Of a DNA stretch of 40,759 nt, positions 28,418 to 34,798 are shown piece after piece. The position numbers and the translations under genes are program-made. The stretch comes from Candidatus Woesebacteria bacterium (GTDB lineage: Bacteria; Patescibacteriota; Microgenomatia; UBA8517): contig JAFGPD010000027.1 of assembly GCA_016926185.1 (NCBI GenBank), forward strand, positions 1 through 40,759, given 5' to 3'. Positions within the stretch are counted from its first letter, which is position 1. Every line of letters starts with the position of its first letter. The notes below the pieces were generated by a model that did no database searches, was not told the DNA's origin, and was given only the letters and a program-made list of their open reading frames with translations.

Positions 28418-28488
28418 CGGGGTGTGGTTCAGTGGTAGAATGGGCGCATGGGGTGCGTCCGGCCCCAGTTCGATTCTGGGCACCCCGA
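28418..28488 (+). tRNA. tRNA-Pro(GGG), CCA not encoded
   Basis: Cloverleaf: CGGGGTG/CACCCCG acceptor, anticodon loop ATGGGGT, T-arm CCCAG-TTCGATT-CTGGG, discriminator A. Confidence 0.95.
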
Positions 28489-31060: not shown

Positions 31061-32140
31061 ATGGCGAGAAAGAAAAAACCCGAAGTGAAGGCTCCTGAAA
31101 AAAAGACAGATGCCTCTCAAAAACTTCAGGCGATAAAGATCGCGATGGAGCAAATTGAAAAACAATATGGAAAAGGCTCAATTATGCGATTGGGAGAAAG
31201 AGGTAAGGACCTTAAGATCGATGTGATCCCGACTGGCTCGATAGCAGTGGACCTCGCCTTGGGTGTCGGTGGTCTTCCTCGAGGCAGGATTGTAGAGATC
31301 TATGGTCCTGAAGCATCAGGGAAAACGTCACTGACACTTTCCGTTGTAGCTGAAGCACAAAAGGCAGGAGGACAATGTGCCTTTGTTGACGCAGAACACG
31401 CACTGGACCCTGCTTGGGCGGAAAAGATCGGGATAAACTTGGATGATCTTCTTTTATCTCAACCTGATTCAGGGGAGCAGGCATTGGAAATTACTGAAAC
31501 CTTAGTTCGATCGGGCGCATTGGATGTAATTGTTGTTGACTCAGTTGCAGCCCTTGTCCCCCGTGCCGAGCTGGAGGGAGAAATGGGGGATGCTGTAATG
31601 GGAATGCAAGCGAGGCTGATGAGTCAGGCTCTCAGAAAGCTTACGGGCGCGATCAGTAAAAGCAAAACCATTTTGATCTTTACCAACCAGATCCGTCAAA
31701 AGATCGGAGTGATGTTTGGCAATCCTGAGACTACTCCGGGAGGACTGGCACTTAAGTTTTATTCATCAGTTAGACTTGATATTAGAAGAATTGAAGTTTT
31801 GAAGGATGGGGACAATGTGATAGGATCGCGACACCGCGTACGAGTTGTTAAAAACAAGGTTGCACCGCCTCTGAAAACTGCAGAGCTGGATATTATGGGT
31901 GATGAAGGAATATCGAAAATGGGTGGGCTTATTGATGTTGCATCTGAACTTAAGATAATGGACAAAAAAGGAGCATTTTATTATTATGGTGACAAAGTAT
32001 TAGCGCAAGGAAGAGAGGCGGCAAAGATGGAGCTTGCGTCTAACAATAAACTTGCAAAGGAAATCGAGAAAGAGATAAGAAACGTTCTTGCTGAAGGCAA
32101 AAAACTTCCAAAGGAAATTGGTGAAGCTGAGGATAAGTAA
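31061..32140 (+). CDS. recA: Recombinase RecA
   Basis: [37 protein letters not shown]. Confidence 0.99.
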
Positions 32141-32234
32141 CTTCAATTAGACTATCAATAATTCATAGTTTGTATGGGTAATGAACAATAACTTATTTAT
32201 TGTGTTTCATCGCTTGATTATGTAATCAAACATT

Positions 32235-32406
32235 TTTACTTTCTTGTTCACCCAAGAAAGTAAACAAAGAAAGGTGCCCGGTGTTTTTCGAGTTGATATC
32301 TCTTCGCTCATGCTTTACAAAAAACGCGTTGCAAACACTTGCAATACTGTTTTTGTATTTTGGTTGTATTCGCTCATCGATATCAAAGCTCAAAACACAA
32401 GGGTAT
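32235..32406. repeat. Structured intergenic element, copy 1
   Basis: 12-bp hairpin + AAAGAAAG + long interrupted stem capped by TTGCAA-acac-TTGCAA; covaries with copy 2. Confidence 0.8.
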
Positions 32407-32507
32407 TGTTTTTTAGATTAAGTCAATGGAGATTGAATTTCTGACGGCATTTTAAGTATATTTCTACAGGATATTCTATTGATTTGGGTAAATGGTAGAA
32501 TGTGTCT

Positions 32508-33116
32508 ATGCCGGTGATCACGAAGATCGAGCCACAGAAAAATAAAAAGAGAGTTAACGTTCACCTCGATGGTGAGTTTTCCTTTGGACTGGATATTGAA
32601 ACTTACATGAAATCGAGTCTCAAGGTTGGGCAGAACTTAGCTGATGAAGAAGTCAAGCAAATAGTCAAAAAATCTGAATTTAAAAGCGCTTTGGATAAAC
32701 TACTTCACTACTCCACTCTCCGCCCAAGATCTGAAAAGGAAATAAATGACTGGCTGAAGAGAAAAAAAGTTGCAGAGAGTTTGCATAAAGAACTGTTCAA
32801 TAAACTAAAGCACCTGAAACTATTGGATGATGAAAATTTTGCTAAATGGTGGGTTGGGCAAAGGTTGCAGTTTAAAAATCGATCTATCAGAGAACTAGCC
32901 AACGAGCTTTATAAAAAAGGAATAGACAAAAACATCATTGAAGAAGTTTTGAAAGACTCGGAAATTAGTGAGGAAAGCTCAGCTGGGAAACTATTGGAAA
33001 AAAGATCTTTTGCATGGAGAAAATACACAGGCTGGGAAAAAAGAAAGAAAATGAGTGATTATCTGGCTAGGAAAGGGTTTAGCTGGGATGTTATTAAGAA
33101 GGTGGTTAAGGAATAA
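32508..33116 (+). CDS. recX: Regulatory protein RecX
   Basis: RPRSEKEI, LLDDENFAKWWV, ELYKKGID, YLARKGFSWD; downstream of recA. Confidence 0.93.
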   Translation: MPVITKIEPQKNKKRVNVHLDGEFSFGLDIETYMKSSLKVGQNLADEEVKQIVKKSEFKSALDKLLHYSTLRPRSEKEINDWLKRKKVAESLHKELFNKLKHLKLLDDENFAKWWVGQRLQFKNRSIRELANELYKKGIDKNIIEEVLKDSEISEESSAGKLLEKRSFAWRKYTGWEKRKKMSDYLARKGFSWDVIKKVVKE

Positions 33117-33199
33117 GTTTGTTTTATTAACTTCTATAGAGTTATGCAATTTTTTTAGATATTTTGTTACTAAGTAATTTTCTATAAGATTCAAAGATA

Positions 33200-33370
33200 G
33201 TCCATTTCTTGCTTGTCCAAGAAATGGACGAAAGAAAGACAGCCTGTAATAATTTAATAGCTCCAAGCCTCACTTATATTATGTAAAAAACGCGTTGGAA
33301 ACACTTCCAAGTGCTGTTTTTACTTTTTTATTGTATTCGTTCGTCTTGTCGAAATTAAATTCTTAACGGC
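33200..33370. repeat. Structured intergenic element, copy 2
   Basis: Same architecture and spacing as 32235-32406 with compensatory changes. Confidence 0.8.
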
Positions 33371-33422
33371 AAGAATATTTTCATACGTTGATTAATTTTG
33401 CGATAAAAGTTAAAATATATAC

Positions 33423-33517
33423 GGAGTTTAAGAAAAAGCATATGCGAAGGCTCACTAACATAGTTTCTTCGTTTATACAGGCCTGACTTAGTAGGTCTTT
33501 ACGGCTTTTTTGTCTCC
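33423..33517 (+). ncRNA. Candidate structured leader/ncRNA upstream of rny
   Basis: Promoter TTGATT-17-TAAAAT (33388-33416); GGAG...CTCC closing a long imperfect hairpin. Confidence 0.4.
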
Positions 33518-33529
33518 AATTAAAAAATT

Positions 33530-34798
33530 ATGGTAAAAAACAAAAAAATTGAAGACGTTAGTGCAAGCGAGCTTAAGGCTTTGGTGAAGGAGCTACGGGA
33601 AGATCGAAAGGTTTTTGAAAAGCGTCAGCAAAAGCTCGAGGAGAGAGAAAAAGAACTCATAAAACTTTTAGAAAAGGCTTCAAATCTAACTGCGAAAGAG
33701 GCTAAAAAGTTGCTTCTTTCTGAACTTGAGAAAGAACTTAAAGAAGAAAAAGCTAAAAAGATAAGAGCCTACGAGGAAAGGGTAAAACAGGAATCTTCCG
33801 AAAGAGCCAGGCAGATATTGGTTGAGGCCATGCGACATGGAGCGACTGAATATGTTGCCGAATACACTCTTTCTTCAGTTAAAGTTCCCAGTGAGGATGT
33901 TAAGGGAAGGATAATCGGCAAGGAAGGCAGAAACATTCGCGCTTTTGAAAAGGCGACAAAGGTTGAGCTTGAGCTAGACGAAACTAACGAGATCAAGTTG
34001 TCCTCTTTTGATTCGATAAGAAGAGAGATTGCAAAAAGAGCTCTTGAAAAACTTATCAAAGACGCAAGGATACAGCCCTCTCGGATAGAGGAAGTTGTCG
34101 AACAGACTGAAAAAAATATGGATGAAGTTCTTTTAGAGGAAGGCAAAAAGATTGCAGAAGAGTGCGGTGTTTATAATCTTCCGACGGAAATAATCTCTCT
34201 GATCGGTCGTTACAAATTCAGGACCTCTTATGGGCAGAACTTGGGAATTCATACTATTGAGGAGACCAAGATGGGTCTATCAATCGCAAAAGAGATCGGT
34301 GCTGATGTTGATATTGTCAGGTTAGGTTGTTTATTGCACGACATCGGCAAGGTGGTTGAAGGAGAAGGAACACATATAGACTTGGGAGTGAGAGTTTTGA
34401 AAAAACATGGGTTACCAAAGGAAGTCGTGAATGCTGTTGCGGAACATCATGAGGATAAGCCTTTCTCTTCTGTCGAGTCAGTGATCGTGTGGACCGCTGA
34501 TGCTATTTCAGGGTCCCGTCCAGGTGCCAGATATGAACCACATGAGGAATATGTTGACAGGATGGAGAAAATCGAAGAGATCGCCCAAGGATTCAAAGGT
34601 GTTGACACAGCTTATGCATTTCAAGCGGGCCGTGATGTCAGGGTCATTGTGAATCCGCAAGAGATCGATGATGACGGATTGACCGTTTTGGTCCATGATA
34701 TTGCGCAAAAACTGGAAAAAGAAGCTGAATATGCAGGACAAGTAAAAGTTACTGCAATACGAGAAATAAGAGCTACTGATACTACTGCAGCGAAATAA
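33530..34798 (+). CDS. rny: Ribonuclease Y (no N-terminal TM anchor)
   Basis: KGRIIGKEGRNIR KH, RTSYGQN, LLHDIGK HD, ADAISGSRPGAR. Confidence 0.96.
   Translation: MVKNKKIEDVSASELKALVKELREDRKVFEKRQQKLEEREKELIKLLEKASNLTAKEAKKLLLSELEKELKEEKAKKIRAYEERVKQESSERARQILVEAMRHGATEYVAEYTLSSVKVPSEDVKGRIIGKEGRNIRAFEKATKVELELDETNEIKLSSFDSIRREIAKRALEKLIKDARIQPSRIEEVVEQTEKNMDEVLLEEGKKIAEECGVYNLPTEIISLIGRYKFRTSYGQNLGIHTIEETKMGLSIAKEIGADVDIVRLGCLLHDIGKVVEGEGTHIDLGVRVLKKHGLPKEVVNAVAEHHEDKPFSSVESVIVWTADAISGSRPGARYEPHEEYVDRMEKIEEIAQGFKGVDTAYAFQAGRDVRVIVNPQEIDDDGLTVLVHDIAQKLEKEAEYAGQVKVTAIREIRATDTTAAK

Follow-up and report, generated by a model that had tools for sequence, protein, structure and literature searches.

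Genes and element copies at the recA-recX-rny locus

The window analyzed here is the whole 40,759-nt contig JAFGPD010000027.1 (contig C38) of a Candidatus Woesebacteria genome (assembly GCA_016926185.1, here G000), which comprises 1.11 Mb in 57 contigs and is rated 94% complete. Its forward strand carries the consecutive genes recA, recX and rny, and each of the two spacers between them contains one copy of a structured element of ~170 nt, copy 1 between recA and recX and copy 2 between recX and rny. The copies are 965 nt apart and in tandem (direct) orientation. Both had been pointed out, from the letters of the DNA alone, in an earlier annotation (the original prediction), and the two-copy layout proved real together with all four features described there: a 12-bp hairpin with a 6-nt loop followed by a purine linker, a long interrupted stem, an apical hairpin, and tandem G·A pairs on the minus strand around a covarying 2-bp core. 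The genes and the parts of the two copies are listed below; the strand given for the element is its probable RNA sense.

31061-32140, plus strand: recA (Pfam RecA, E 2.7e-133), neighboring gene outside the element
32235-32405, minus strand: copy 1, whole unit, from profile search and folding, with the orientation taken from the RF01731 relatives
32235-32264, minus strand: hairpin P1 of copy 1, 12-bp stem and 6-nt loop (32247-32252); the inner 7 bp are conserved and the outer 5 bp covary in the family
32265-32272, minus strand: linker of copy 1, purine-rich on the plus and U/C-rich on the minus strand; mirror of the P1 purine strand and candidate third strand
32273-32276, minus strand: pseudoknot partner of copy 1, GGTG on the plus strand, pairing with loop positions 32249-32252 (CACC)
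32277-32405, minus strand: body of copy 1, long interrupted stem with internal-loop motifs at 32303-32311 and 32368-32377 (YGARYGAR on the minus strand)
32329-32344: apical hairpin of copy 1, TTGCAA-ACAC-TTGCAA
32502-33116, plus strand: recX (Pfam RecX_HTH1, RecX_HTH2 and RecX_HTH3), between the two copies
33200-33370, minus strand: copy 2, whole unit, 85-88% identical to the copies on contigs C2 and C37
33200-33229, minus strand: hairpin P1 of copy 2, loop 33212-33217
33230-33237, minus strand: linker of copy 2
33238-33241, minus strand: pseudoknot partner of copy 2, GACA, pairing with loop positions 33214-33217 (TGTC)
33242-33370, minus strand: body of copy 2, long interrupted stem with internal-loop motifs at 33270-33277 and 33335-33343
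33295-33310: apical hairpin of copy 2, TTGGAA-ACAC-TTCCAA
33530-34798, plus strand: rny, neighboring gene for an RNase Y-like protein with RNase_Y_N, KH and HD domains

The two copies are true homologs of each other, although their loops and bodies differ. The 34-nt pattern formed by the hairpin core, six free positions and the linker matches the window twice, against 0.00 matches expected from 100 shuffles. Copy 1 folds with -53.3 kcal/mol on the plus strand (z -5.53) and -48.5 kcal/mol on the minus strand (z -4.03), and copy 2 with -45.0 (z -4.23) and -45.6 kcal/mol (z -4.65), respectively; none of 200 shuffles equals these energies for either copy on either strand. For copy 2 the minimum-energy fold has the family structure on the minus strand, while that on the plus strand does not.

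Read on the minus strand, the body is the 5′ part of the unit and consists of a short G+C clamp, an A/U-rich stem, an internal loop with the motif YGARYGAR and a variable apical hairpin, which in each window copy is single and has a GUGU loop. The two strands of the internal loop can form two tandem G·A pairs around a 2-bp core. This core covaries in 26 family copies (GC in 20 and AU in 4; UA in 14 and CG in 7).

Promoter prediction in the window places promoter-like sites just past each copy, at 32433-32462 for recX and at 33388-33416 for rny, so that neither gene needs to depend on read-through.

Pseudoknot and covariation

Hairpin P1 is one half of a pseudoknot. In the plus-strand reading, the 3′ part of its loop is complementary to the 4-5 nt that lie past the linker, and the two sides change together: the loop/partner pairs GTCC/GGAC, CTCC/GGAG, GCCC/GGGC, CACC/GGTG, TGTC/GACA, CTAC/GTAG and CGTCC/GGACG are all seen. 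This pairing, the mirror rule and the spread across phyla described below go beyond the features of the original prediction.

The pairing of P1 and the pseudoknot was counted in 91 distinct 49-nt segments from many phyla and compared with 500 shuffles. In this set 94.7% of the cells are paired versus 78.0% in the shuffles, none of which is as high, and the covariation score is 0.450 versus 0.158. The P1 stem is paired in 95.5% of cells, with 6 of its 12 pairs changed on both sides, and the pseudoknot helix in 92.3%, with 3 of its 4 pairs changed on both sides. When the partner columns are slid by 1-3 positions, 40-51% of the cells pair.

The full structure was evaluated in the 26 family copies, where 78.6% of cells are paired versus 62.9% in the shuffles (0/500 as high) and 47 of 61 pairs have changes on both sides, while the slid control gives 39-45%; the count is somewhat biased toward the structure, which came from a single member and was projected onto a MAFFT alignment. 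RNAalifold applied to MAFFT alignments recovers the structure for five close copies and only P1 for the 26 diverse copies, because the arms are misaligned in the latter.

The mirror rule and a candidate triple helix

The purine strand of the inner P1 stem, when read backward and not complemented, gives the sequence of the linker. The rule was examined in 125 genomes of the same family, where two stem classes occur, each with its own linker:

Stem TTTCTTG/CAAGAAA with linker AAAGAA: 39 exact matches, or 45 when one mismatch is allowed, to a pattern that also fixed the loop
Stem TTCTTTG/CAAAGAA with linker AAGAAA: 15 matches
Stem TTTCTTG/CAAGAAA with the crossed linker AAGAAA: 1 match, with an atypical loop
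Stem TTCTTTG/CAAAGAA with the crossed linker AAAGAA: 0 matches

A third register, found in Ralstonia (stem TTTCTTTG/CAAAGAAA, linker AAAGAAA), follows the same rule. In genome G012 two copies (L040 and L254) have bodies identical at 137 of 142 positions and modules, i.e. P1, linker and pseudoknot partner, identical at only 27 of 48, and they belong to different stem classes; the switch between classes is thus not a single inherited event. The body type of copy 1 also occurs paired with the other stem class, in genome G099.

On the minus strand the U/C-rich linker runs parallel to the P1 purine strand, with its one C facing the one G-C pair. Such an arrangement of the linker is shown by the U·A-U and C+·G-C major-groove triples of H-type pseudoknots. 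The candidate third strand of the element thus matches the purine strand of the stem and changes in coordination with it, and the mirror rule is probably the signature of a base-triple helix, which the knot would form throughout the superfamily.

The order of helix S1, U-rich loop L1 and helix S2 is the same as in the SAM-II and preQ1-II riboswitches, the telomerase RNA pseudoknot and the 3′-end structures of the ENE (element for nuclear expression)/MALAT1 type, in all of which L1 lies parallel to the S2 purine strand in a triple helix. Unlike these RNAs, the element has an unusually long S2 of 12 bp, and it shares with them no sequence or Rfam match. A riboswitch role is made less likely by the copies between convergent genes, for which a position as 5′ leader is impossible. 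By analogy with ENE/MALAT1, a role as a protector of the 3′ end is put forward here as a proposal only.

In six distinct Thioalkalivibrio copies (L140, L146, L177, L188, L189 and L235) a different conserved flank, which ends in CAACNGGC, takes the place of the 5′ outer arm of P1. The conserved inner stem begins exactly at this break, which resembles a junction left by recombination or insertion.

Copies in the genome, the family and other phyla

The census of copies is based on nhmmer profiles, sequence patterns and paired-column counts. BLAST and an nhmmer profile find exactly five copies in G000, the three outside the window being located at C2:10870-11061 (plus strand), C37:7536-7729 (minus) and C25:8409-8642 (plus). 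Copy 2 and the copies on C2 and C37 are mutually 85-88% identical and lie at unrelated loci, while copy 1 belongs to a different subfamily. The C25 copy is decayed: its arms come from different subfamilies, P1 has mismatches and the apex contains a 41-nt G+C-rich insertion. Homology among the recent copies runs from the base of the long stem to the end of P1, so the unit corresponds to the ~170 nt marked in the original prediction. Stand-alone P1-type hairpins are absent from the G000 genome. The genes flanking the copies are unrelated, and several copies lie between convergent genes.

The pattern of P1 plus linker is found at 45 places in 24 of the 125 family genomes, with 1-5 copies per genome, and a reversed-pattern control gives no match in the same genomes. 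Its presence is patchy within genera, where counts range from 0 to 5 (e.g. 5, 0 and 0 in one genus). One genome with zero matches (G125) nevertheless holds a copy of the second stem class, so the pattern undercounts. Altogether, 30 distinct full-length family copies were collected and aligned.

In a scan of one genome per prokaryotic species, at least 122 stretches carry the pattern. Among the matches listed, the carriers are many Thioalkalivibrio, Alloalcanivorax mobilis, Anaerotruncus massiliensis, an Oscillospiraceae metagenome-assembled genome (MAG), Nitrospinota, Thermodesulfovibrionia/Nitrospirae, and Woese-, Gottesman- and Chisholmbacteria. The A/T-rich module of ~48 nt is nearly letter-identical across these phyla, even where it adjoins very G+C-rich bodies. 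Phage carriage was considered and rejected, the pattern giving no match in 2.9 million viral contigs. A BLAST search of a plasmid collection with the Alloalcanivorax element returned a single match, on a Ralstonia megaplasmid.

That match, in R. solanacearum (CP059377.1:696280-697735, L251), is a divergent doublet of two single-hairpin elements that fills the glgX-glgB spacer, with the knot modules pointing outward; the Rfam matches in this region are limited to spurious hits of microRNA-type hairpins.

Gain and loss at orthologous sites

In the 30 family loci examined, recA and recX are always adjacent, and rny is the next gene in 28; the other two loci end before it. The element is present in these spacers only in G000, which has it in both, and in G127, which has it between recX and rny, so that 28 of the 29 loci other than that of the window lack it in both. 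These are the empty relatives suggested as a check in the original prediction. The recA-recX spacer is shorter than about 120 nt in 24 of the 29 other loci and measures 361 nt in G000.

The G127 copy and copy 2 occupy the same spacer and their knot modules are nearly identical. Their bodies are unrelated, and orthology of the two copies was therefore rejected in favor of independent insertions or exchange of the module. In a metagenome contig, a knot module broken by a G+C-rich insertion lies some 50 nt past recX. A metagenome scan with RecX for closer relatives of the window gave nothing above 58% identity.

Filled and empty sites are also found away from this locus. In genome G008, 242 nt containing the element follow the glutamate dehydrogenase gene, while in its congeners G125 and G124 the two convergent genes abut, with gaps of 0 and 2 nt between the aligned blocks at the empty site. 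A few hundred bases further on the situation is reversed, with only 33 nt in G008 at a site where a copy (190 nt) is present in G125. The filled and empty orthologous sites, the 85-88% identical copies at unrelated loci and the swapping of modules and bodies together show that the element spreads.

The boundaries of recent copies and the filled and empty sites show neither a target-site duplication nor a conserved target tetranucleotide.

Candidate machinery and comparison with known repeat classes

The window contains no transposase, as the original prediction had noted, and none is found beside the other copies examined; the same holds for Y1_Tnp and integrase genes. A link to a Y1 transposase or a reverse transcriptase, which the original prediction had listed among the checks, was sought and not found. 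Y1_Tnp is present in 16 of the 24 element-bearing genomes versus 46 of the 101 others, so that any association is weak at most. Five exact-pattern copies are found in G008, whose genome is closed and rated 98% complete, yet it gives no Y1_Tnp match at E <= 1e-5. RVT_1 occurs in 24 of the 125 genomes, 5 of which are among the 24 element-bearing ones versus about 4.6 expected by chance. A retron or other reverse-transcriptase-dependent non-coding RNA (REVERSE TRANSCRIPTASE) was rejected, as there is no association and G008 and G019 are without RVT_1. The IS110 transposase was likewise rejected, being absent from G000.

A single reverse transcriptase gene, with a frame of 403 aa, is present in G000, together with one 142-aa Y1 transposase of the classical IS200 type; weak Y1_Tnp matches are given by four longer proteins of 227-427 aa. 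These sites (C11:22314-23018, C27:3799-4158, C11:34053, C11:25454, C2:20705 and C54:1862) do not adjoin any element copy.

Repetitive extragenic palindromic (REP) sequences and REPINs, enterobacterial repetitive intergenic consensus (ERIC) sequences and bacterial interspersed mosaic elements (BIMEs), miniature inverted-repeat transposable elements (MITEs) and the R200 repeat are likewise short, hairpin-forming intergenic repeats without a protein, which are patchily distributed and gained and lost. The element differs from these classes in that it has no terminal inverted repeats with duplication, no link to RAYT (REP-associated tyrosine transposase) or Y1 enzymes, and a low copy number (1-5). 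The REP/MITE-like membership suggested in the original prediction is not borne out: for a MITE, a target-site duplication and a gene-carrying version are missing among the copies found, and for a REP or REPIN, Y1_Tnp is absent from 8 of the 24 element genomes and adjacent to none of the copies examined. To our knowledge, the REP/REPIN, ERIC/BIME and MITE classes do not have a signature of a pseudoknot with a triple helix. R200 of Pseudomonas fluorescens SBW25 is described as a 320-bp repeat with 47 copies (PMC2718517), and 48 TwoAYGGAY matches are reported in the same strain (bioRxiv 10.64898/2026.09.22.753630); from these copy numbers, R200 is probably an extended TwoAYGGAY element.

Relation to TwoAYGGAY RNA and the strand question

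At gathering thresholds, the only Rfam 15 match in the window is a tRNA gene (28418-28488, 54.1 bits). At E <= 10, positions 32100-33560 give nothing meaningful, RF01731 included, and thus no Rfam 15 model matches the window copies. The connection to a known family comes through their relatives.

TwoAYGGAY RNA was described by Weinberg et al. 2010 (PMC2864571) and is Rfam family RF01731. The Alloalcanivorax relatives of the element score 47-58 bits with this model, for which the cut-off is 43 bits and which the window copies fail to match. In Alloalcanivorax the body of the element gives 54.1 and 51.3 bits, on the strand opposite to the reading in which P1 comes first. The genome of A. mobilis has 17 RF01731 matches, 10 of them above the cut-off. 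Of 12 Alloalcanivorax RF01731 loci that were fetched, the full module adjoins the match on its 3′ side in ten, an eleventh is truncated by the end of the contig, and the twelfth has no module. The module in the window is nearly letter-identical to the one in this position in A. mobilis. The location of the module 3′ of the RF01731 matches makes the minus strand, antisense to recA-recX-rny, the probable RNA sense of the element in the window. RF01731 gives no match in the module-carrying Anaerotruncus, Thioalkalivibrio, Oscillospiraceae and Nitrospinota genomes.

Three other observations fit the minus strand. In the 30 family copies, the motif YGARYGAR occurs 37 times on the minus strand and never on the plus strand, and it is found on both strands of the internal loop in 14 copies. 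The minus-strand fold is the more stable one in 20 of the 30. On the minus strand the P1 hairpins have U-rich tails and are flagged as terminator-like; their stems are A/U-rich, the tails are interrupted, and they are antisense to the window genes.

Li et al. (bioRxiv 10.64898/2026.09.22.753630) describe TwoAYGGAY RNAs of Pseudomonadota with an elongated basal stem, extra hairpins and a 3′ pseudoknot. They report median copy numbers of 11-23, reaching 202, with swings between relatives, frequent doublets that are enriched in Pseudomonas and divergent in 68.4% of cases, and an expansion that is called mobile-element-like. With this extended form the element shares the long basal stem, the 3′ pseudoknot, location in intergenic regions in multiple and variable numbers, the occurrence of close pairs and the absence of a protein gene. 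The elongated stem and the 3′ pseudoknot are found in the orientation of the Rfam match and both helices covary; the comparison with the Pseudomonas pseudoknot is by architecture as described, not by sequence. Multiple intergenic copies, variable counts and doublets are exemplified by the five copies of G000 and by the divergent doublet of Ralstonia.

The window copies differ from TwoAYGGAY RNAs in their host, a member of the candidate phyla radiation (CPR), in their single GUGU-loop hairpin, and in being a tandem rather than a divergent pair. The two hairpins with AYGGAY loops by which RF01731 is defined are absent from them: AYGGAY does not occur on either strand of copy 1, and in copy 2 it is confined to the outer P1 stem. 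No CsrA, which has been proposed as the partner of the AYGGAY loops, was found in G000 (94% complete), and both CsrA and an L7Ae-type protein were rejected as partners, neither being found in this genome.

Relatives with a single hairpin were found in Ralstonia, Thioalkalivibrio, Nitrospirota and Nitrospinota and are not present in Rfam 15. They have the same module of P1 and pseudoknot with a long hairpin body, which is G+C-rich, and share the motif YGAGCG...GCGAG with tandem G·A pairs near the apex. The motif caps the body directly in Ralstonia, Nitrospirota and Nitrospinota and encloses a short inserted hairpin in Thioalkalivibrio, while in the CPR copies it is the internal loop, past which they add an apical extension of ~60 nt.

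What appears to be new is the variant in CPR bacteria without AYGGAY loops; TwoAYGGAY itself is already described as pseudoknotted, multi-copy and mobile-element-like, as far as the cited accounts go. The main text of bioRxiv 10.64898/2026.09.22.753630 mentions neither Patescibacteria nor a triple helix. In the literature outside subscription journals and supplements, no earlier descriptions were found other than the cited papers. The original prediction of an unannotated non-coding RNA family or mobile repeat therefore stands in part: the strong covariation, the filled and empty sites and the lack of an Rfam match agree with it, and the link of the module to RF01731 means that the family is not wholly new.

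Interpretation

The preferred reading, to which we give a probability of about 0.55, is that the element is a proliferating, structured element without a protein, most likely acting as an RNA from the minus strand, and that it belongs to a cross-phylum superfamily of which TwoAYGGAY is the sole described branch. In the account best supported, the bodies are interchangeable and the 3′ pseudoknot with its triple-helix signature is the conserved core. Both window copies are proposed to be insertions that stretch the normally compact recA-recX-rny cluster and lie antisense to it.

The minus-strand unit would begin with the long interrupted hairpin at its 5′ end and continue into a 3′ H-type pseudoknot composed, in order, of S1 (4-5 nt), the U/C-rich linker and the 12-bp P1, with the 5′ bases of the P1 loop pairing with S1. 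The linker could occupy the major groove of P1 as U·A-U and C+·G-C triples. Such a triple-helix knot would stabilize or define the 3′ end of the RNA, and it could block 3′ exonucleases or aid termination, given the U-rich tail behind P1 on the minus strand. The body would serve as a platform for protein binding, and copying would be performed by host functions in trans. In the mRNA of the operon, the complement of each copy would likewise be a stable hairpin.

Several points weigh against the preferred reading. The window copies themselves miss RF01731, and their tie to it consists of the ~48-nt module and general architecture. No sigma-70-like promoter is predicted on the minus strand upstream of either copy. 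G·T and A·C mismatches number 53 versus 38 in the full copies and 23 versus 18 in the P1/pseudoknot set, i.e. without a strand preference, while in an RNA under purifying selection G·U should dominate; near-equal counts would be expected if most copies decay after insertion or if the fold matters in DNA. Both strands show the mirror symmetry, which takes the form of a purine motif on the plus strand, so that the rule alone does not set the strand. A linker of 7-8 nt over a 12-bp stem is sterically tight for six triples, and a few copies (e.g. L254, L256 and L065) have no complementarity between loop and partner.

The lack of a mismatch bias leads to the main rival, in our view an unlikely one, according to which the element works as folded single-stranded DNA and is a non-autonomous mobile element served in trans by an HUH/Y1 enzyme or a tyrosine recombinase. 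HUH/Y1 enzymes work in this manner in IS200/IS605 and REP/RAYT systems, and tyrosine recombinases use folded sites in integron attC and CTX. Folded DNA would explain the missing strand bias and also the exchange of modules at the hairpin, since the break between module and body and the replaced outer arms in Thioalkalivibrio fall where a recombination site would put them. The 12 + 6 + 12 layout of P1 is that of a recombinase core site, gain and loss between congeners is clean, G000 has five Y1_Tnp matches, the domain is somewhat more frequent in element-bearing genomes, and DNA too forms tandem G·A pairs and T·A-T and C+·G-C triples. Set against this are the five copies of G008 in a genome with no Y1_Tnp match, the absence of Y1_Tnp or integrase genes beside the copies examined and of target tetranucleotides or target-site duplications at the boundaries, the match of the relatives to a curated RNA family, and the pseudoknot adjoining a triple-helix signature, a combination typical of RNAs.

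A reading on the opposite strand, which appears rather improbable, takes the copies as cis-acting elements in the recA-recX-rny mRNA that act in attenuation of read-through, protection of upstream mRNA from 3′ exonucleases or processing, with the linker serving as a kind of ribosome-binding site. All five G000 copies are co-oriented with the upstream gene, the plus strand also folds well, the linker is Shine-Dalgarno-like and the promoter-like sites of recX and rny follow the copies. Other copies, however, lie beside unrelated genes (M20 peptidase, glutamate dehydrogenase, methyltransferase, sugar dehydrogenase), many are between convergent genes and some are antisense to both neighbors, while 28 of the 29 other family loci with the same gene order do without the element in both spacers. 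The plus strand has no U-tract after P1, and the minimum-energy fold of copy 2 on that strand is not the family structure. There is no conserved small open reading frame (ORF) past the linker: a 46-aa ORF in copy 1 is interrupted by stops in copy 2 and others, and a small-ORF reading of the linker was rejected. Very improbable, finally, is that the direct copies mark recX as an excisable cassette, with the P1 sites recombining as in integrons and the pair as the functional unit. A single gene between two direct copies is seen three times (recX in G000; in G008 a methyltransferase, L016, and glutamate dehydrogenase, L031), and doublets are enriched in Pseudomonas (bioRxiv 10.64898/2026.09.22.753630). 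Yet all 30 family loci have recX at this place as a conserved core gene, whether the element is present or not, the genes enclosed by copies are housekeeping genes unrelated to each other, most copies are single, the window copies differ in loops and bodies, and the doublets of Ralstonia and, as reported there, of Pseudomonas are mostly divergent with no gene between them.

TwoAYGGAY-type elements rank among the most abundant structured repeats of bacteria that still lack an explanation. Their knot module reaches CPR bacteria, with repeat-poor genomes of about 1 Mb, where it is attached to a body without AYGGAY in a genome without detected CsrA. This is an argument for the knot, rather than the proposed Csr/Rsm-binding loops, as the part that is conserved and probably essential. 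More tentatively, the knot may be the conserved engine of a very large class of mobile non-coding RNAs that extends from CPR bacteria to Proteobacteria, Firmicutes, Nitrospirota and Nitrospinota and in which TwoAYGGAY is one interchangeable body. In this view bodies and knots would recombine freely, and the triple helix may guard the 3′ end, as a counterpart in bacteria of ENE/MALAT1-type elements, or be a handle for copying by machinery of the host. The mirror rule offers a concrete structural hypothesis in the form of the triple helix, and a tractable setting for the study of movement is offered by closed CPR genomes, where copies are few and sites filled in one congener are empty in another. 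For annotation, such elements account for unusually long spacers in compact operons, recA-recX-rny being an example.

Additional observations

A G+C-rich hairpin insertion of ~41-56 nt with similar ends is found in two of the places described above, inside the apex of the C25 copy (C25:8525-8565, L002) and in the metagenome contig downstream of recX, where it splits the linker of the knot module (L268:2096-2152). A possible second copy in G000 is at C32:1801-1849. It has the appearance of an independent mini-element inserting into the structured elements.

Extra knot-type hairpins of the second class, which have no linker, lie just past P1 in L016 and L028 (G008) and in L017 and L032 (G019), and a similar hairpin stands alone in the empty G008 site (L031, about 2290-2320). 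They may be landing neighbors for new copies or remnants of older ones.

A group I intron match (82.7 bits; L166:74-286, Chisholmbacteria record) is located less than 400 nt from an element copy, and a sub-threshold T-box-like match (58.6 bits, cut-off 93) lies beside a copy in L139:811-1022 (the Oscillospiraceae MAG). The gene that ends at the start of the C2 copy (C2:9521-10876) encodes a 451-aa protein whose N-terminus, by eye, resembles a helix-turn-helix domain joined to a metallopeptidase-like body.

Short C-rich motifs, AAUCYCCAUYGA and UUGUCCCCAAAAC, are found just 5′ of the elements in the RNA sense (window 32406-32500, L032, L029 and L031) and recur in copies of different genera, copy 1 included. 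On the plus strand, one of them overlaps the promoter-like site of recX (32433-32462). They resemble the short repeats reported 5′ of the Pseudomonas TwoAYGGAY RNAs (bioRxiv 10.64898/2026.09.22.753630).

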